From a phage, in the sequence record PZ445534.1: a stretch of DNA of 64,000 nt; one strand, written 5' to 3'. Position 1 is the first letter of the stretch. Each line of letters opens with the position of its first letter. Made by a program: the position numbers and the translations under genes. Positions 52,166 to 64,000 of this stretch are shown piece after piece. Below the pieces are notes generated by a model, which saw nothing but the letters and a program-made list of their open reading frames with translations, was not told where the DNA came from and made no database searches.

Positions 52166-52444
52166 ATGGCTAAAGAAAAGTGGGAGATTTTACCATTAGT
52201 CAGTGAAGGAGGTAATGGTTGTGAAATGTACATGATACGTGGTCATGTTCCAGAGCCAATTGCACTTGAGATGGTAAACAACTTTACAGATGGTTCTTAC
52301 AAAGACTTAGGCGAACCAACTGTCAAGCAACAATGGGTTAAACCTGTACCAGACAGCACAGGTAACTGTAGTGTACTTTATCACGTTGTAGACCCTGCAA
52401 AATGCAAATCTGCAATGGCAGTAACAAACGTAACTTTTGATTGA
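52166..52444 (+). CDS. hypothetical protein
   Basis: 92 aa ORF. Confidence 0.3.
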   Translation: MAKEKWEILPLVSEGGNGCEMYMIRGHVPEPIALEMVNNFTDGSYKDLGEPTVKQQWVKPVPDSTGNCSVLYHVVDPAKCKSAMAVTNVTFD

Positions 52445-53337
52445 GAGAGAAAACTATGAAAACTGTTATTGAAGCCGTCATCACCGCTCAAGAGAAATTC
52501 TTCCACACAGAAAAATTTAATATCATTCAATTCCCATCTGGAGAAATTGGTGGAAACTTCTCTGAAGATTTTGTTAAGTTTACTGAGCGTAATGCCGGTA
52601 AGATTGATAATGTTATAATTACTGTACAGGGATATGACAAAGATACACTGTTTGCATTAGCTTTGGCTAAGGATGCCGTTGACAGTCTTGTTCCCCAGAA
52701 ATCAGCGATGAAAACCGTTGTTTTCGGGTTCTTACCAAATGCTCGATATGACCGCCACATGTTCAAAGGTGATGCAGCAGCACTGAAAGTCTTTGCCAAC
52801 CTAGTTAATGCAATGGGTTTTGATGCAGTATGTGCTCTTGACCCTCATAGTAATGTTGCAGAAAACTTATTTAAGTGCTTTCAAAGCATGAAGCAAAAAG
52901 ATGTGGCAGTACACTTTGCAAGTGACCCACGCATTGATTTCTTGGTAGCCCCAGATGCAGGTGCAGCTAAGAAGACTGAAGATACCGCTAAAGAGGTGGA
53001 TAAACCGTATATCACAATGTCTAAGGTGCGCAATCTTAAGACTGGAGAAATCACTGGTATGCGAATCCTAGACGATGTTGATTTGACCGATAAAACTGTC
53101 ATGATTCTTGATGATATCTGTGATGGTGGTCGAACCTTCGTAGAGGCAGCTAAACACCTACGTGAAGCAGGTGCAAAACGTGTGGAACTCTATGTAACTC
53201 ATGGTATTTTCTCTAAAGGTGTTGAAAACTTACTTGACAACGGTATTGACCATATCTACACTACAAACACCTTAGGTGAAGCTAAAGACCGTGGCTTAAC
53301 ACATTACGCCCAAGTTACTGTAGCAACCATTGATTGA
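52441..53337 (+). CDS. prs: ribose-phosphate pyrophosphokinase (PRPP synthetase)
   Basis: 298 aa; PRPP-binding motif MILDDICDGGRTFVEAAKHLREAGAKRV and overall resemblance to E. coli Prs as recalled. Confidence 0.8.
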   Translation: MREKTMKTVIEAVITAQEKFFHTEKFNIIQFPSGEIGGNFSEDFVKFTERNAGKIDNVIITVQGYDKDTLFALALAKDAVDSLVPQKSAMKTVVFGFLPNARYDRHMFKGDAAALKVFANLVNAMGFDAVCALDPHSNVAENLFKCFQSMKQKDVAVHFASDPRIDFLVAPDAGAAKKTEDTAKEVDKPYITMSKVRNLKTGEITGMRILDDVDLTDKTVMILDDICDGGRTFVEAAKHLREAGAKRVELYVTHGIFSKGVENLLDNGIDHIYTTNTLGEAKDRGLTHYAQVTVATID

Positions 53338-53386: not shown

Positions 53387-55168
53387 ATGACTAAATCACT
53401 TTACGCAGTACCAGCAGGTCTTAATGCAGATGCTTACAAGGCATCACATATATATCAGTATCCAGATGCTACGCAATATCTTATGTTGAACCTGACACCA
53501 CGTAGTGATAAATGGTTTAACAGCCCTTTGGCAATTGACGGTGTAGTGGCTTTTGGTATTCAACGTTTCGTTAAAGATTACTTGATAGACCACTGGAACG
53601 CCACTTTCTTTGAACGTGATAAAAAAGAAGCCATTGATGAAATCTTAGAAGTCATGAATGGTGTTCTGGGTAAAGATGCTATCGGTCGAGAGCACTGGGA
53701 AGCACTTCACGACTTAGGTTATCTACCAGTTGAAGTATACGCTGTAGAAGAAGGTACAGTTGTCCCTATGCGCGTCCCAATGATTGTCTTCCAGAACACT
53801 GTTTCAGGCTTCCATTGGGTAGCGGGGTATCTGGAAGATGCTTTCTCTGCTGAGATTTGGAAGGCTTGTACCATTGCAACTATTGCATTGCACTACAAAC
53901 GTATCTGTAAGAAGTGGGCTGACCTTACTTGTGACAACGACTTGCATTTGCCTTATCAGTGCCATGACTTTGCTATGCGTGGTATGTCCGGCTTTACTGA
54001 TGACGCATTTAACGCTGTAGGCCACTTAACCAGCTTTAAAGGAACTGATAGCTTCCCTGCTGTGTATACGGCTAAACGAATCTATGGACAGTCCTACCCA
54101 ATCTCTGATATTGGTAGCTCTGTACCAGCCACTGAGCACTCTGTAATGTGTGCAAACATTGCTTGGGAAGGTGGTAATGAGTTGATTGAAGAAGAAAGAC
54201 GCTTTAAAGGTGAGTTACAAACCTTCCGTCGTTTCTTAACAGAAACTTACCCAACTGGTATTGCAAGTGTTGTTTCAGACACTTATAACTTCTGGAGAAC
54301 TGTGTCAGAAATTTTACCAGCACTTCGTAAAGAAATTATGGAACGTGATGGCAAACTGGTAATTCGTCCTGACTCTGGAGACCCTGTACATATTGTCACA
54401 GGTTATAAAGCAATCCACTTAGAATGTGCTAAAAAGGCTTATTACGAGCACCTAAGCAAGCTGGAAGCCAGTGACACAATGTTGAATGCTGTTCTGAACA
54501 TGAAGCTTGAAAATATCAACTATGGTATTGCTGGATGGCTACTGTCAGAAGGCTACGAAATGGTTGTTGACAGAGAAGACTTTGAAGTTGCTGATACAGT
54601 GATGTTGAAAAATGCTTATATGGTTGGTTCTGCAAACGTTGTAACACGTCCTGTAGCTGAGATTGATGGAGCTATTAAGACACTGTACAACATCTTCGGA
54701 GGGACTATTAACTCTAAAGGGTTTAAGGTACTGGATGAGCACATCGGCCTTATCTATGGTGACTCTATCACGCTGGAACGTGCAAACGAAATCCTGAAGC
54801 GTCTGTATGAAATGGGTTTTGCAAGCTCTAACGTAGTGTTTGGTGTAGGCTCTTACACTTACCAGTACATGACTCGTGACACCTTTGCATTTGCTGTCAA
54901 AGCAACTCTTGCAAGCATTGGTGGTAAAGAGATTATGCTTGCAAAAGACCCTAAAACAGATAGTGGTGTTAAGAAATCTGCCTTTGGTGGTGTAGCACCT
55001 ATGTGGGATGGTGATAAGCTGAAAGCTGTAGATGGCTATGGATTCCAGAGTTTTGCAGATGTACTTGACCACCAAGCTTGTGCTTTACGTTTAGTCTTTA
55101 GCGACTCTGAGCAGTTCGGTTATACAACTCTTGGAGATATTCGAAATAATATTGACAAGCAGCTTTAA
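53387..55168 (+). CDS. nadV: nicotinamide phosphoribosyltransferase (NadV/NAMPT-like)
   Basis: 593 aa; N-terminal DAYKASHIYQYP matches NAMPT signature DSYKVTHYKQYP as recalled; adjacent to prs. Confidence 0.75.
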   Translation: MTKSLYAVPAGLNADAYKASHIYQYPDATQYLMLNLTPRSDKWFNSPLAIDGVVAFGIQRFVKDYLIDHWNATFFERDKKEAIDEILEVMNGVLGKDAIGREHWEALHDLGYLPVEVYAVEEGTVVPMRVPMIVFQNTVSGFHWVAGYLEDAFSAEIWKACTIATIALHYKRICKKWADLTCDNDLHLPYQCHDFAMRGMSGFTDDAFNAVGHLTSFKGTDSFPAVYTAKRIYGQSYPISDIGSSVPATEHSVMCANIAWEGGNELIEEERRFKGELQTFRRFLTETYPTGIASVVSDTYNFWRTVSEILPALRKEIMERDGKLVIRPDSGDPVHIVTGYKAIHLECAKKAYYEHLSKLEASDTMLNAVLNMKLENINYGIAGWLLSEGYEMVVDREDFEVADTVMLKNAYMVGSANVVTRPVAEIDGAIKTLYNIFGGTINSKGFKVLDEHIGLIYGDSITLERANEILKRLYEMGFASSNVVFGVGSYTYQYMTRDTFAFAVKATLASIGGKEIMLAKDPKTDSGVKKSAFGGVAPMWDGDKLKAVDGYGFQSFADVLDHQACALRLVFSDSEQFGYTTLGDIRNNIDKQL

Positions 55169-59399: not shown

Positions 59400-59948
59400 A
59401 TGAAGAAATTGATTCTAGGTTTGTGCTTAATGTTTACAGCACACTTATCTTATGCAGTTGACTGCCCAGAGCTATCAATTAGCCAAAAAGTAAACATGTT
59501 AAAAGCTTACCAGTATGGTGAGAATAACATGGGTAAAGGTTGGGGTATCACTCTAGCTGCTATAGCCTTACAAGAGTCAGAGTTAGGTCTGAAGGTAGAG
59601 AATAAAAAGACACATGACTATGGTATTTTCCAGAATCACTTGAAGACTGTTGTAAAGCGTAACAAAATCAGTCCTAATGTGGCTAAAAAGAAACTCTTAA
59701 AAGATTTTGATTATGCTGCGAAGGAAACGCACAAAGAACTTGAGTTTTGGACAAAGGTGCATGGTCAGCCAAAGTCAAAGAAGGCTTTACAAAAAGTTTT
59801 AGCATCTTATAATGCTGGGTATTCGTACAGAATCCCTAAAGCTAAGAAATATTCTCAAGATGTCTATAACAATATGAAAGTAATTGCTCAATGTGAATTT
59901 GCAACAAACATTTCTAAGGTAAACCATGAAAAAATTAAGAAAGTCTGA
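59400..59948 (+). CDS. secreted lytic transglycosylase-like protein (candidate endolysin)
   Basis: 182 aa; signal peptide; SLT-like catalytic region ALQESELG...YGIFQN. Confidence 0.55.
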   Translation: MKKLILGLCLMFTAHLSYAVDCPELSISQKVNMLKAYQYGENNMGKGWGITLAAIALQESELGLKVENKKTHDYGIFQNHLKTVVKRNKISPNVAKKKLLKDFDYAAKETHKELEFWTKVHGQPKSKKALQKVLASYNAGYSYRIPKAKKYSQDVYNNMKVIAQCEFATNISKVNHEKIKKV

Positions 59949-60621
59949 TGAAGTACTGTGTCATGCTTATGACTTACATCCTCATGAGTTGGGTCTTGAT
60001 TCCTGTGTATGGACTCCAGAACAGTGTAGAGACTTTGAAGACACCGCAAGAGAAGTTGTATGTTCACTTGAAGAGTTCCACACATCAGAACCAATTGTGA
60101 ACGTTGTGGACAAAGAGACTGGGCAATCCATAGGTGTAAAACGTGATAGCTTAGTCATAGTCAACAAAGACCTTGTAGAGAAAGGTAATCTTATCTTAGC
60201 AGATATTGATGGAGTTCTTACAAATTTTAATCACGAAGATTGTTCAACGGAATTGACTGATGGTTCATTTTCACAGTACACTAATCTTCTTGATTCTGTA
60301 AGAGCAAAACCAACGTATGTTTTCAATATCATTGATGCAATTGCTAATCATGCTGCCGTTGGACTCTTGACAGCGAGAGGCGAATCTCAGAGAATACCCA
60401 CTGAGATGTTTTTAAGGCATAACACAGAGCATAACTACATGCTTTTTATGCGTGGTTTTGGTACTAACTCTATAAGTGCAGAAAGTTTGAAAGTGAGGAT
60501 GATTCAGTCTTGCATTCTGCCTTACTTTAATATAGTATGTTTTATAGAAGATACAGAGAAGAATGTGCAGAAGGTGAACAGAATCCTTCCACACATCAAA
60601 ACCATGTTAGTTAAACATTGA
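59926..60621 (+). CDS. HAD-superfamily hydrolase-like protein
   Basis: 231 aa; HAD motif I-like LADIDGVLT. Confidence 0.35.
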   Translation: MKKLRKSDEVLCHAYDLHPHELGLDSCVWTPEQCRDFEDTAREVVCSLEEFHTSEPIVNVVDKETGQSIGVKRDSLVIVNKDLVEKGNLILADIDGVLTNFNHEDCSTELTDGSFSQYTNLLDSVRAKPTYVFNIIDAIANHAAVGLLTARGESQRIPTEMFLRHNTEHNYMLFMRGFGTNSISAESLKVRMIQSCILPYFNIVCFIEDTEKNVQKVNRILPHIKTMLVKH

Positions 60622-60631
60622 GAGAAAACTT

Positions 60632-61096
60632 ATGAACAATATCATTACGGTAGCACTGGACGTTACGGCAAACAAATCTGAAGTAGTTCGTAACATTATC
60701 AAGAGCAACTTTGAGGGTAAAATCTTCCGTGCTGTCAATGTAAAAGCAGACGGCAACATCCGAGAGTATCGTGCTCTTTTGAATGTTAAGAAACACGTAA
60801 AAGGTTCTGGTTCAACGACAGCACACAAAGAAAACCTGATGACCATCTATGATATGGGGATGGCTTCAGAATTAGGTGCTGAAGGTATCGTTAAAGAAGG
60901 TGCTCCGTATCGCTCTTTCAATCTGGAAACTGCTCTCATGCTTTCCTTTACAAGTGGTTCTAAAACAACTACTTATCTCTTTACTGATGCTGCAACGGTA
61001 TCTGCTATCAAGGATAGCACTGTCAAAGCTGGGGTAGCTGCTGCTGCAAAAGCTTCTTCGATGGCTGCAAATGTCCTTGCTAAAGTCCTCGGTTAA
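60632..61096 (+). CDS. hypothetical protein
   Basis: 154 aa ORF with RBS. Confidence 0.35.
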   Translation: MNNIITVALDVTANKSEVVRNIIKSNFEGKIFRAVNVKADGNIREYRALLNVKKHVKGSGSTTAHKENLMTIYDMGMASELGAEGIVKEGAPYRSFNLETALMLSFTSGSKTTTYLFTDAATVSAIKDSTVKAGVAAAAKASSMAANVLAKVLG

Positions 61097-61106
61097 GGTT
61101 AAGATA

Positions 61107-61129
61107 CAGGCTCCTTCGGGAGCCTTTTT
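61107..61129 (+). terminator. rho-independent terminator
   Basis: GGCTCC-ttcg-GGAGCC + TTTTT. Confidence 0.55.
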
Positions 61130-61148
61130 CATTTCAGGAGATTGTTAA

Positions 61149-61496
61149 ATGACATTTAAAGAGTTCTGTCAAGCTACTTTCATAATTGTTTTCTTAGTTG
61201 GGGCAGGTGTCTGGGGAGGATACTCTTACAGAGACTACCAAGTTGCTGAAGCTGAGTTAAGCAATGAGAAACTAATAAGTGTTGCTAAAGATGCTTATCA
61301 GGAAGGTTTAGCCACACTCAGCACCAATTACAAAAATGATTTGAAAGATGTGCTTGCTAAGAATAAGCATACAAAAGAGGTACTAACATATGAAAAAACT
61401 AAGCCAGAGTTTTATAATGTTTGTGTTACTGATAATTATGTCAGGGTGTTCAACCAACAAAGTGAACAGTACATTCAAAAACTCCCAAGTAAGTGA
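61149..61496 (+). CDS. i-spanin (Rz-like)
   Basis: 115 aa; N-terminal TM helix then coiled-coil periplasmic domain; overlaps lipoprotein ORF in another frame. Confidence 0.5.
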   Translation: MTFKEFCQATFIIVFLVGAGVWGGYSYRDYQVAEAELSNEKLISVAKDAYQEGLATLSTNYKNDLKDVLAKNKHTKEVLTYEKTKPEFYNVCVTDNYVRVFNQQSEQYIQKLPSK

Positions 61497-61659
61497 GAGT
61501 GACAAGTACACTCAAGATGAGTCAAGATTCACTGTCAAAGGTAATACCGGTAGTGATGTGGCAGCAGCCCTTGAGTTTTACCGTGATGGATTCTACCAGT
61601 GTACAATCAAAGCTAATAACCTTATTGATATGATTTTATTAGGAAACAAACAGCAATGA
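61390..61659 (+). CDS. o-spanin (Rz1-like outer-membrane lipoprotein)
   Basis: 89 aa; signal peptide with lipobox MSGC; start embedded in 3' end of i-spanin gene. Confidence 0.5.
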   Translation: MKKLSQSFIMFVLLIIMSGCSTNKVNSTFKNSQVSESDKYTQDESRFTVKGNTGSDVAAALEFYRDGFYQCTIKANNLIDMILLGNKQQ

Positions 61660-61925
61660 CAGAGAATGAAGATACTTTTTACGTAGAAGGTTACTTACTG
61701 TTACCACGACCAAAAGAAACTTATATGCGGGTTGATTTCTCACCAACCATTATGGATAACGTGATGTGTCATATCTTTATGCAAGGTGTCACAGCACAGC
61801 TTAAGCACGTTGATAAAGAGTGCAAAATAAAGGTTGACACTCATCCAGAAATCAAAGAGAATCACTACACATGGTTCTTACCAGACTCTAAAGAAATCTT
61901 AGCAGTTCTTAAAACGAGGAAGTAA
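61656..61925 (+). CDS. hypothetical protein
   Basis: 89 aa coupled ORF. Confidence 0.3.
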   Translation: MTENEDTFYVEGYLLLPRPKETYMRVDFSPTIMDNVMCHIFMQGVTAQLKHVDKECKIKVDTHPEIKENHYTWFLPDSKEILAVLKTRK

Positions 61926-61927
61926 CT

Positions 61928-62254
61928 ATGCAGATTAATGGAAGAGATTTTGTAGCCGTTTACTACGAGAAAGATAAAGAGGTTGGTGTAGCACAAGTAA
62001 CTTACGGCAATGGTAAGTGGCTATATGGAACAATCGCAGTAGTAGGAACAAGAAGTGATACAAAAACTTTTAAAGATTGTGTTGACCTTCTTGAAGAATC
62101 CATCCACAATCATTGGTGTCTGATATGGATGACTGACAATGAAGTGATGGAACGTTTCAAAAAGATTGATATCAACATAGACAGCATTGAGCATGTTGAC
62201 TTGTATGAACTGACTGAGAAGGTAAATTATGAAAGTAATTCTAGCCAGAGATAA
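61928..62254 (+). CDS. hypothetical protein
   Basis: 108 aa ORF. Confidence 0.3.
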   Translation: MQINGRDFVAVYYEKDKEVGVAQVTYGNGKWLYGTIAVVGTRSDTKTFKDCVDLLEESIHNHWCLIWMTDNEVMERFKKIDINIDSIEHVDLYELTEKVNYESNSSQR

Positions 62255-62456
62255 AAAGACACGGAAAATTATCCGGTCAGCAGTATTTATTGGAAGAAAT
62301 GAAGTGATTCCTTTTACAGCAAATGATGTGATAGTCTACAGGAAAAAATTAGCATTCAGTTATTGCTTACGTGGCTTTATCTCCCAGCCATTAGAAGATT
62401 TTAAAAATCGTTGTGGTAAAGGCATCATCATTCAAGAGGCAATTATTCATGGCTGA
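62229..62456 (+). CDS. hypothetical protein
   Basis: 75 aa ORF. Confidence 0.25.
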   Translation: MKVILARDKKTRKIIRSAVFIGRNEVIPFTANDVIVYRKKLAFSYCLRGFISQPLEDFKNRCGKGIIIQEAIIHG

Positions 62457-62649
62457 CTTCTGTAAAGATTGTTCTATCGAAATGTTCGGACGTGATACAG
62501 GTGACTTAAAAGGTCTTATCACTGAAGATGACTTTAAAGCTGGTTATGCAATGCCAGTAATCTGTGAAGGTTGTGGGTGCATCTGGGTAGACCACGAAGG
62601 GCAGCGTGTAAAACCTTCAGAAGATAAAGAATCTTGGGAGAGATGTTAA
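62413..62649 (+). CDS. Cys-rich small protein (probable zinc-binding)
   Basis: 78 aa; CKDC...CEGCGC. Confidence 0.3.
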   Translation: MVKASSFKRQLFMADFCKDCSIEMFGRDTGDLKGLITEDDFKAGYAMPVICEGCGCIWVDHEGQRVKPSEDKESWERC

Positions 62650-63435
62650 ATGGGTATTGTAAAAATCATCAATGGCGATATCTTTGCCGCATTTGATAAA
62701 GGTAAGTTTGACATTATTGGTCACGGTTGCAACTGTATGAATTTAATGGGTGCAGGTATCGCTGACAAGATTTCTAAACTTTACCCAAAAGCATATGAGA
62801 CAGATACAGAAGTCTATCTATATGCAGGTGGCATAGGTCACAAACCCTGTGAAAATTTACTGGGTAATTTCTCTGTAGCACGTTTAAAACAAGGTCGTAT
62901 AGCTAACCTTTACACTCAGCTTAAGACTGGTAAAGATGCCCGATACAGTGCTTTAGAGTCATCTTTGAAGCAACTTAACAGATACTGTGAAGTTAATCAG
63001 TTGAAGAAAGTTGGTTTACCTATGATTGGTGCAGGTATCGGTGGACTTGACCCTCAAGCCGTCACAGTTATCATCAATCAGGTGATGAAGAGCGTAGATG
63101 TTTATCTATATGTCTATGAAGGAGAGATGTACCATAAGTTACTCTCAGGTTGGAAGAACTACTGTGAACCAGAATACTTTGCAGGTGTAGCAGTGTTCAC
63201 AGATAACGCAGTTACCCTCTTCAGACGAAGAAAAGGTAAGATACATCAAAGTAACCCTCCGGTTGAAAAGATGTCTCTAAGTAACGCTCTAGTTACCCAC
63301 CTGTCAAAGAGCAATCACAGAATTGCTGTAACATTTGGTAGTGATGCAGAAGCTTATATCTATGCAAGAACTGATGAGGATATTGAGGCAATCTTCTCTT
63401 CACCAGAAGTTACCTTCTTAGACGCAAAGAACTAA
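62650..63435 (+). CDS. macro-domain (ADP-ribose binding/processing) protein
   Basis: 261 aa; macro-domain-like blocks IINGDIF...IIGHGCNCMNLMGAGIADKI and VGLPMIGAGIGGLD (cf. YmdB-type GDIT...NAAN...GGGGV and FPAISTGVYG). Confidence 0.5.
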   Translation: MGIVKIINGDIFAAFDKGKFDIIGHGCNCMNLMGAGIADKISKLYPKAYETDTEVYLYAGGIGHKPCENLLGNFSVARLKQGRIANLYTQLKTGKDARYSALESSLKQLNRYCEVNQLKKVGLPMIGAGIGGLDPQAVTVIINQVMKSVDVYLYVYEGEMYHKLLSGWKNYCEPEYFAGVAVFTDNAVTLFRRRKGKIHQSNPPVEKMSLSNALVTHLSKSNHRIAVTFGSDAEAYIYARTDEDIEAIFSSPEVTFLDAKN

Positions 63436-63508
63436 GAAACTCTGTAGGATATTCACAATAGACTAAGCCTTTCTTATCTGGTAAATTTTTCAGGTAAGGA
63501 GGGCTTTT

Positions 63509-63687
63509 TCATTTCAGATTTGTGCAGGTAGAGTTCTGTAGAGAAATCTATAGAGAAAATTTTGAACTCCAAAGAGAAAATTCATTCTCAAACTGTGCAG
63601 GTAATCTCCAAAGAGCTTTTTCATTTTCAAAACGTGCAGACCCCGCTCAGGTCGGGCAAGAAAAATCATTTTAGAATTGTGCAGGTA
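63509..63687 (+). repeat. four imperfect direct repeats (~22 nt, TTCATTTTCAAANTGTGCAGGTA) in non-coding region
   Basis: Copies at 63509-63530, 63581-63603, 63620-63640, 63665-63687; spacing 72/39/45 nt. Confidence 0.6.
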
Positions 63688-63706
63688 GGTTTTTATAGAC
63701 AGCCAG

Positions 63707-63742
63707 CCCAACCCCTCTCCCCCTCTTACTCCCCCTCTCCCC
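63707..63742. repeat. polypyrimidine C-tract; opposite strand has G-quadruplex-forming potential
   Basis: CCCAACCCCTCTCCCCCTCTTACTCCCCCTCTCCCC; complement has five G3+ runs with short loops. Confidence 0.6.
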
Positions 63743-63863
63743 AAAAGTCAAGAGAAAAATTTGTAGCGGATTGAAAAATAATTCTTGATTTGCGTTCTGT
63801 TTTGTGGTAGTCGTGCGCACCCGTTTCATTACAGTTTTGCCAAAAATATTTTTAAAATTTTTA

Positions 63864-63892
63864 TTGACTCTTTGAACGTGGTTATCTAATAT
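63864..63892 (+). promoter_or_regulatory. sigma70-like promoter TTGACT-17-TAATAT
   Basis: TTGACT 63864-63869, 17 nt spacer, TAATAT 63887-63892, ~65 nt upstream of ATG 63959. Confidence 0.4.
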
Positions 63893-63958
63893 TTGCATCA
63901 ACGGAGAGGGAATAACCTTCCCCACTAAATAACTAACCTTAAACTAGGAGACTCTAAA

Positions 63959-64000
63959 ATGGCATATCGTGCACCTAAATTCATCAATAAAGACAACTTT
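63959..64000 (+). CDS. 5' end of a CDS truncated by window edge
   Basis: ATG with upstream AGGAG RBS; open to window end (MAYRAPKFINKDNF). Confidence 0.3.
   Translation, partial: MAYRAPKFINKDNF

Follow-up and report, generated by a model that had tools for sequence, protein, structure and literature searches.

Phage record PZ445534.1 provides the 64,000 nucleotides (nt) analysed here (the window), which belong to a Felix O1-like myovirus of the genus Felixounavirus, subfamily Ounavirinae. On the plus strand, at 62650..63435, lies an open reading frame (ORF) for a protein of 261 amino acids, referred to here as the macro protein, in which a macro domain is followed by an orphan C-terminal domain. 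The ORF runs from an ATG, with a Shine-Dalgarno sequence (GGAGAG) 7 nt 5' of it, to a TAA at 63433-63435. A first-pass annotation of this DNA, made from the letters alone, had drawn this frame and recognised two macro blocks in it, and both NGDIF...IIGHGCNCMNLMGAGIA and VGLPMIGAGIGGLD are present where it placed them. Could such an ORF arise by chance? The strength of its Pfam and PHROG profile matches lies far above that expectation, with PHROG 335 ('phosphatase') covering residues 1-260 at E=5e-113. Felixounavirus LF82P3 encodes a 100% identical protein, 257 phage records contain 80% or more of it, and the last 2 kb of the window share 94-96% nucleotide identity with dozens of E. coli and Salmonella phages. 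The gene is kept, and closes the rII block, in Felixounavirus, Mooglevirus, Suspvirus and Kolesnikvirus and also in metagenomic relatives farther off; it is a core gene of the Ounavirinae. GenBank records of these relatives label it 'putative phosphatase', 'macro domain-containing protein', 'O-acetyl-ADP-ribose deacetylase' or 'hypothetical protein'. The gene family is well populated and already annotated in phages, and its biology is only recently being worked out in other phages.

The macro domain and its active site

The macro domain spans residues 1-157 (62650..63120, plus strand), as delimited by Pfam, DarG profiles, the AlphaFold2 model, Foldseek, hhalign and the pattern of selection. 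Pfam Macro (PF01661) matches residues 25-141 with E=1e-7 and 32.4 bits against a cut-off of 22, and the AlphaFold2 model, with a mean predicted local distance difference test score (pLDDT) of 90 and a predicted template modelling score (pTM) of 0.88, recovers the three-layer alpha/beta/alpha macro fold. Foldseek against the PDB returned 242 macro-domain matches at E<=1e-3, headed by TARG1, the Thermus and Mycobacterium DarG proteins and yeast Poa1p, with template modelling (TM) scores for these top structures, normalised to the target, of 0.76-0.87. A profile built from 31 homologues ranks the same proteins first in the PDB (TARG1 4e-17, Mycobacterium tuberculosis DarG 5e-16, Poa1p 2e-15), and the next structural class below them is that of the viral Mac1-type macro domains, such as SARS-CoV-2 nsp3. 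The comparison with DarG, YmdB and MacroD proposed in the first-pass annotation held for DarG, which is among the top matches by both sequence and fold, and failed for the other two, as no MacroD or YmdB chain is named in the listed sequence matches or in the 50 listed fold matches. Judged by sequence and predicted fold, this is a macro domain of the TARG1/DarG/Poa1p kind, not of the MacroD/YmdB kind.

Is the protein then a DarG antitoxin? The DarG models of PADLOC and NCBIfam align to the macro part only, and the NCBIfam DarG equivalog reaches 47.5 bits where 250 are required. We rejected this identity: the catalytic Lys80 of DarG is replaced, the DarT-binding domain is absent and there is no adjacent DarT. 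For the last point, DarT (DUF4433) was sought beside the macro gene, where the four upstream ORFs have no Pfam match and the downstream side is a 520-bp non-coding gap.

Four motifs outline the site: HGCNC (residues 25-29), MGAGIA (33-38), NLYTQ (86-90) and PMIGAGIGG (124-132). Across the 31 homologues H25, G26, N28, C29, M33, G36, A38, P46, G72, N86, L87, T89, Q90, P124, G127 and G129 are invariant. Both glycine-rich loops expected of a macro domain are present, MGAGIA and IGAGIGG (126-132), with G36, G127 and G129 invariant and M33 and G34 invariant or nearly so; they are the predicted holders of the ADP-ribose diphosphate. Alignment by hhalign to a profile of DarG, for which four DarT-adjacent DarG proteins from plasmids served as reference, gave 99.2% probability and pairs DarG Asn22 with Asn28. 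His25 corresponds to Poa1p His23. At the position of the classical catalytic lysine stands Gln90, and TARG1 D125 corresponds to Gly131, so that the K84/D125 dyad of TARG1 is absent. By its sequence, the protein is a 'Gln-type' macro domain, and because the lysine is replaced, the lysine-based chemistry described for TARG1 and DarG would not be usable here. The Kolesnikvirus orthologue (Erwinia phage vEam_W_25, L014:12998-13777) reads GQGCNC and not GHGCNC, and lacks the histidine that is essential in Adpp, the macro protein of phage Gary.

The C-terminal domain

Residues 158-261 (63121..63432, plus strand) form a second domain, predicted to begin with a linker helix, continue in about seven beta strands and close with a terminal helix. 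The first-pass annotation had estimated this extension at some 80 residues; it measures ~104. Its pLDDT lies at 77-92 in the full-length model, except for the final residue, and at 74.5 when the tail is modelled alone. No Pfam family and no known fold matches it. When 1.84 billion representative proteins were scanned in full with HMMER, a tail profile of 14 sequences found the domain only fused to the Ounavirinae-type macro clade or as ORF fragments (P0032, P0040); some very long repetitive proteins also surfaced and were discarded as repeat-inflated noise. Three candidate identities were tried and rejected. The tail resembles neither the DarT-binding domain of DarG (hhalign probability 0.2%) nor the aRES inhibitor aRad1 (0.1%), and its net charge, which runs from -6 to +4 across homologues, shows no trend of the kind that would mark a nucleic-acid binder or DNA mimic.

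How is such a domain kept? At the protein level the tail diverges about twice as much as the macro domain. Within Felixounavirus the ratio of nonsynonymous to synonymous substitution rates (dN/dS) is ~0.31 for the tail versus ~0.01 for the macro domain, and in comparison with Mooglevirus the values are 0.44 and 0.20. The macro domain is therefore under very strong purifying selection and the tail is maintained, under a much looser or diversifying regime. This pattern would fit a tail that contacts a variable partner. The tail of the Kolesnikvirus orthologue is equal in length to that of Felixounavirus and has no detectable similarity to it.

NARP1 in the same genome

The first-pass annotation also spoke of NAD+ salvage enzymes in this phage. 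They were found, and they are more precisely the two enzymes of NARP1, Adps and Namat. NARP1 was discovered in phage Bas63, itself a Felixounavirus, and the window carries the domain pair of Bas63 genes 79-80: a Prs-like gene at 52441..53337 (Pfam Pribosyltran/Pribosyl_synth), the Adps candidate, and a Nampt-like gene at 53387..55168 (Pfam NAPRTase and NAMPT_N), the Namat candidate, both on the plus strand. GenBank relatives label them ribose-phosphate pyrophosphokinase and nicotinamide phosphoribosyltransferase. From Namat it is 7.5 kb and ~14 genes downstream, on the same strand, to the start of the macro gene, which exceeds the two genes from Adps-Namat within which the paper that defined Adpp counts a macro gene as part of the operon.

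Gene order was read off the ORFs of the window and the genome of phage humlepung, which is 95% identical. It reads Adps, Namat, a hypothetical gene, rIIA, rIIB, an SLT-like gene, a HAD/PNK-phosphatase-like gene, a hypothetical gene, a terminator and the Rz/Rz1 spanins, followed by four small ORFs, the macro gene, a terminator, the 520-bp gap and an array of small promoter-led genes. Kolesnikvirus has this layout too. Two metagenomic relatives, whose macro proteins are 33-36% identical overall, keep it from rIIA on, which is the stretch covered by their loci. A phage-encoded ADP-ribosyltransferase was considered as a partner and dropped, none being annotated in the humlepung genome (an annotation-level check). 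The unrelated Vibrio phage K460 (L013:1-6122) has rIIA, rIIB and an Adps-macro-Namat run of NARP1-AP type in one co-directional neighbourhood, echoing the Ounavirinae.

Proposed function of the macro protein

The macro protein, Tk.4 of phage T4 and Adpp of phage Gary belong by sequence to one family, the phage Poa1p-like proteins of PHROG 335. Tk.4 is the best-scoring characterised relative, with 34% identity over the entire domain (E=3e-24); Gary Adpp has 27% identity to the macro protein (E=2e-13) and 35% to Tk.4. What do these relatives do? In a transposon screen of T4, tk.4 was the single gene needed on a host with DarTG2, and its clean deletion sensitises T4 to DarTG2; the gene was named AdfM, anti-DarT factor Macrodomain (bioRxiv 10.1101/2025.11.20.689424). 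Osterman et al. described aRES, a RES-domain NAD+ phosphorylase whose product, ADP-ribose (ADPR)-1''-phosphate (ADPR-1''P), is unusable by NARP1, and Adpp, a macro protein of the Poa1p kind whose gene sits between those of Adps and Namat; in purified form Adpp turns ADPR-1''P into ADPR and lets NARP1 function again, with H24A listed as the inactivated control (bioRxiv 10.64898/2026.01.28.702374). A third protein, PhiKZ gp104, strips DarT2 ADP-ribose from DNA in vitro (Cell Rep 2026, PMC13309987). It is Lys-type and DarG-like, has 23% identity to the macro protein and groups with DarG in a neighbour-joining (NJ) tree. The name AdfM has thus been given to two non-orthologous macro proteins, PhiKZ gp104 (Lys-type, activity in vitro) and T4 Tk.4 (Gln-type, genetic evidence).

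The first-pass annotation had offered binding or hydrolysis of ADP-ribose, in the form of either reversal of ADP-ribosylation or breakdown of an ADP-ribose-derived molecule. The profile match and the predicted fold agree with this, and each proposed job has its counterpart in a characterised relative, the former in Tk.4/AdfM (DarTG2) and the latter in Gary Adpp (ADPR-1''P). We infer the function of the macro protein from these relatives. Which of the two does it resemble? The NJ tree (200 bootstraps) recovers the Ounavirinae two-domain proteins (99%), the main Adpp clade (100%) and a clade of Tk.4 with Erwinia phage FBB1 (84%), and it was dropped as arbiter between Tk.4 and Adpp as it does not order the three. 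Residue signatures are more informative for this choice. Eight NARP1-embedded Adpp proteins were sampled from Table S1 of bioRxiv 10.64898/2026.01.28.702374. All eight have an insertion of 4-8 residues directly after the Gln, rich in Tyr, Gly and Arg (in the alignment of residues 82-104 of the macro protein), and in all eight Ile130 is matched by Leu or, in one case, by Arg; in most, the catalytic His is followed by Gln (HQxNC). The loop is short in the macro protein, in Tk.4 and in the remaining short homologues from phages, all of which carry Ile130 and HGCNC. Macro proteins sampled from outside the NARP1-operon table mostly have no post-Gln insertion either, and one (P0030) has an insertion of three residues. 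On this sequence comparison the three active-site signatures group the macro protein with Tk.4 and not with the NARP1-embedded Adpp proteins, and the post-Gln insertion is possibly a specificity determinant for the 1''-phosphate.

The explanation that we place first, tentatively and by analogy, is that the product of the gene, a member of the phage Poa1p-like macro family, serves counter-defence as an ADP-ribose hydrolase, with an anti-DarT2 role like that of Tk.4/AdfM. It is ranked above an Adpp-like role because of the residue signatures and the Kolesnikvirus orthologue. The glycine-rich loops MGAGIA and IGAGIGG would bind the ADP-ribose moiety, and the site formed by His25, Asn28 and Gln90 would hydrolyse the substituent on C1'' of the distal ribose without the lysine of DarG and TARG1. 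The main substrate would be the ADP-ribose that DarT2-type toxins place on thymidine of single-stranded phage DNA, and its removal would let replication proceed, as is presumed for T4 Tk.4. Freed ADP-ribose might then feed the NARP1 enzymes of the phage, Adps and Namat, by which NAD+ would be rebuilt. The same site may also dephosphorylate ADPR-1''P, and the 104-residue C-terminal domain would be an accessory module, its fast evolution suggesting a variable partner.

A series of points weighs against the DarT2 assignment. Gln90, in NLYTQ, takes the place of the catalytic Lys80 of DarG (FPTK), and likewise of TARG1 K84 and PhiKZ gp104/AdfM K78; given this replacement, hydrolysis of the N-glycosidic ADP-ribose of thymidine by the site is conjectural. 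His25 aligns with Gary Adpp His24, a residue essential in Adpp, and Adpp, the sole biochemically tested Gln-type member of the family, is an ADPR-1''P phosphatase. The anti-DarTG2 evidence for T4 is genetic and comes from a preprint, the anti-DarT2 role of the macro protein itself is a reading of its sequence, and the NJ tree leaves the branching order of the Ounavirinae, Tk.4 and Adpp clades unsettled. A literature search returned nothing on whether Felixounavirus is sensitive to DarTG2.

The chief rival, possible though the less probable of the two, is that the macro protein is an ADPR-1''P phosphatase of the Adpp type, encoded in trans 7.5 kb downstream and completing a NARP1-AP pathway. 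In this logic RES-domain enzymes (aRES) turn NAD+ into nicotinamide and ADPR-1''P, which Adps cannot use, and removal of the phosphate lets NARP1 rebuild NAD+. The homology to an enzyme that in purified form makes ADPR from its 1''-phosphate speaks for it, as does the position of the inactivating H24A, which maps to the conserved His25 and hence to Poa1p His23. Poa1p is also among the best fold and sequence matches. NARP1 lies on the same strand in the window and is co-inherited with the macro gene across the Ounavirinae including Kolesnikvirus, phage K460 combines rIIA and rIIB with Adps-macro-Namat, and aRES occurs in E. coli, Klebsiella and Enterobacter. However, the gene lies ~14 genes from Namat, outside the operon, and the table of NARP1-associated macro proteins in bioRxiv 10.64898/2026.01.28.702374 (Table S1) lists neither it nor any Escherichia or Salmonella phage. 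Moreover, the macro protein and Tk.4 lack all three features of the sampled Adpp proteins, and a fast-evolving extra domain has no obvious reason in a metabolite phosphatase. The Kolesnikvirus orthologue has Gln for the Adpp-essential His and still keeps NARP1, which makes a conserved Adpp-type phosphatase role for the clade hard to square. The Tk.4-like and Adpp-like roles are not mutually exclusive, as both reactions cleave the C1'' substituent of ADP-ribose and release ADPR. The 35% identity between Tk.4 and the Gary phosphatase makes more than one mechanism of Tk.4 against DarTG2 conceivable.

A bolder version of the counter-defence reading, which we regard as unlikely, makes the protein a two-part factor converging on the architecture of DarG. 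The macro hydrolase would erase DarT2-modified DNA or aRES-made ADPR-1''P and hand ADP-ribose to NARP1, and the tail would bind and block the defence protein itself. Somewhat more doubtful is a general eraser or housekeeping enzyme, tied to neither DarT2 nor aRES, that takes ADP-ribose off proteins or RNA after their modification by ADP-ribosyltransferases of host or phage, or hydrolyses O-acetyl-ADP-ribose. TARG1/OARD1 is the top sequence and fold match, some GenBank records carry the deacetylase label, and macro domains are broadly promiscuous (PMC9503650), but the TARG1 dyad K84/D125 is replaced by Gln90/Gly131, the humlepung genome has no annotated ADP-ribosyltransferase at the level of that check, and both characterised close relatives serve counter-defence. 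Last and very improbable is a non-catalytic binder that sequesters an ADP-ribose-derived immune signal (for instance the cyclic ADP-ribose isomers of Thoeris) or binds a defence protein, with the C-terminal domain as effector: the missing classical lysine and a tail evolving as fast as an arms-race interaction surface might would fit it, but the invariance of His25, Asn28 and Gln90 in the 31 aligned members and the macro dN/dS of ~0.01 form a pattern that enzymes typically show, relatives of the Gln type have activity or a function, and the tail resembles neither aRad1 nor the domain with which DarG binds DarT.

The end of the rII block and the downstream gap

The macro gene had been described as the right end of a late-transcribed block. 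Its terminal position is borne out, as it is the last co-directional gene and is followed by a terminator-like hairpin (63465-63506) with a T tract (together 63465..63516, plus strand) and the 520-bp gap; phage ASO1A has an annotated terminator at the corresponding place. Another terminator lies upstream at 61108-61125. The label 'late' is unsupported. Besides the spanins, the block contains the nrd genes, NARP1 and rIIA/rIIB, together with promoters of sigma-70 type that are close to consensus (11/12 matches, at 55152, 58116 and 59786), so early or middle-type functions are present in it, and the literature on Felixounavirus expression timing yielded nothing usable.

Directly upstream of the macro gene, a 66-residue ORF with a zinc-ribbon-like CxxC...CxxC pattern (62449..62649, plus strand; PHROG 2210) ends in a TAA that adjoins the macro ATG. 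As a conserved partner it was rejected: the same slot holds a non-homologous zinc ribbon in one distant relative (L008, 7810-8001) and an unrelated 103-residue ORF in another (L007). Further upstream, the SLT-like ORF (59400..59948), a weak Pfam match, overlaps by 23 nt an ORF of 231 residues (59926..60621) whose similarity to phage polynucleotide kinase families is confined to their 3'-phosphatase (HAD) part; both ORFs are kept in L007, L008 and Kolesnikvirus.

The gap itself (63436-63958) has several features of its own. Three to four copies of a ~30-nt motif ending TGTGCAGGTA(G/A) lie within 170 bp (63509-63699), and the 12-mer of this motif is not enriched in the rest of the window. A C-rich tract follows (~63700-63745), unusual in this AT-rich genome, and a promoter, TTGACT-17-TAATAT (63864-63892), precedes an ATG at 63959. 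Structured RNA in the gap was considered and dismissed; Rfam has no match there, and its sole match in 61000-64000 (61060-61141) is far below the family threshold. In phage Michonne a small minus-strand coding sequence occupies the gap after the macro gene. Phages LF82P1, NRG857CP1, ekra and LF110P1 match window positions 62000-64000 in two pieces spanning ~2482 bp, which implies some 480 additional bases within it in these phages; our guess is that these sit in the gap 3' of the macro gene.

Significance

Genes for macro domains rank with the commonest accessory genes that large phages have, and 41% of myoviruses carry one (PMC9503650). Only in 2025-2026 were two Gln-type members of the present family tied to specific defences, DarTG2 and aRES. 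Three aspects of the case are not described elsewhere: the two-domain form of the Ounavirinae, a Gln-type site that lies in a NARP1 genome but not in the NARP1 operon, and the difference in selection between the two halves of one protein. The Felix O1-like phages include widely used typing and therapy phages of Salmonella and E. coli as well as the BASEL phage Bas63. What is the substrate, and whom does the tail contact? Together the two answers bear on three points: whether one enzyme family covers both DarTG2 and aRES, whether NARP1 phages that lack a phosphatase within the operon are truly exposed to aRES, and whether the tail represents an inhibitor domain of a new kind. If the two-part reading were true, the tail would be a new protein-binding anti-defence domain, and the protein the first link between reversal of DNA ADP-ribosylation and reconstitution of NAD+ by a phage.

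Comparison with known systems

T4 Tk.4 is the nearest parallel. It shares the Gln-type, Poa1p-like site with its HGCNC, MG(A/S)G(I/V)A and IGAGIG motifs and the NLYTQ followed by a short loop, and it too comes from a lytic E. coli myovirus. Tk.4 differs in being a single domain of 155 residues, whereas the macro protein has 104 more in its C-terminal domain, and in lying in the tk-vs region, whereas the gene described here closes the rII block. To our knowledge T4 has no NARP1. Gary Adpp shares the histidine (His24 for His25) and the Gln at the lysine position, and both phages encode Adps and Namat; its gene is found between these two and not 7.5 kb downstream, and it has no C-terminal domain. 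Adpp proteins differ further in the insertion after the Gln, the usual HQxNC and Leu for Ile130.

Yeast Poa1p (PDB 6LFQ) shares the H-x-C-N-C motif and a target TM of ~0.76, and it is this similarity from which the GenBank 'phosphatase' label derives. Poa1p is the eukaryotic ADP-ribose 1''-phosphate phosphatase that acts on a by-product of tRNA splicing. It is ~23% identical to the macro protein, has Ser30 where the latter has Leu32, and is a single domain. Human TARG1/OARD1 (PDB 4J5S) is the best PDB match by profile (4e-17) and by fold (E=3e-10, target TM 0.84-0.87), but its K84/D125 dyad has become Gln90/Gly131. DarG and PhiKZ gp104 have a homologous macro domain whose Asn (N22 in DarG, N23 in PhiKZ) corresponds to Asn28; they differ in the lysine (K80/K78) found in place of Gln90 and fall in a separate Lys-type clade of the tree. 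DarG, like the macro protein, is built of two domains, a macro domain and a C-terminal one.

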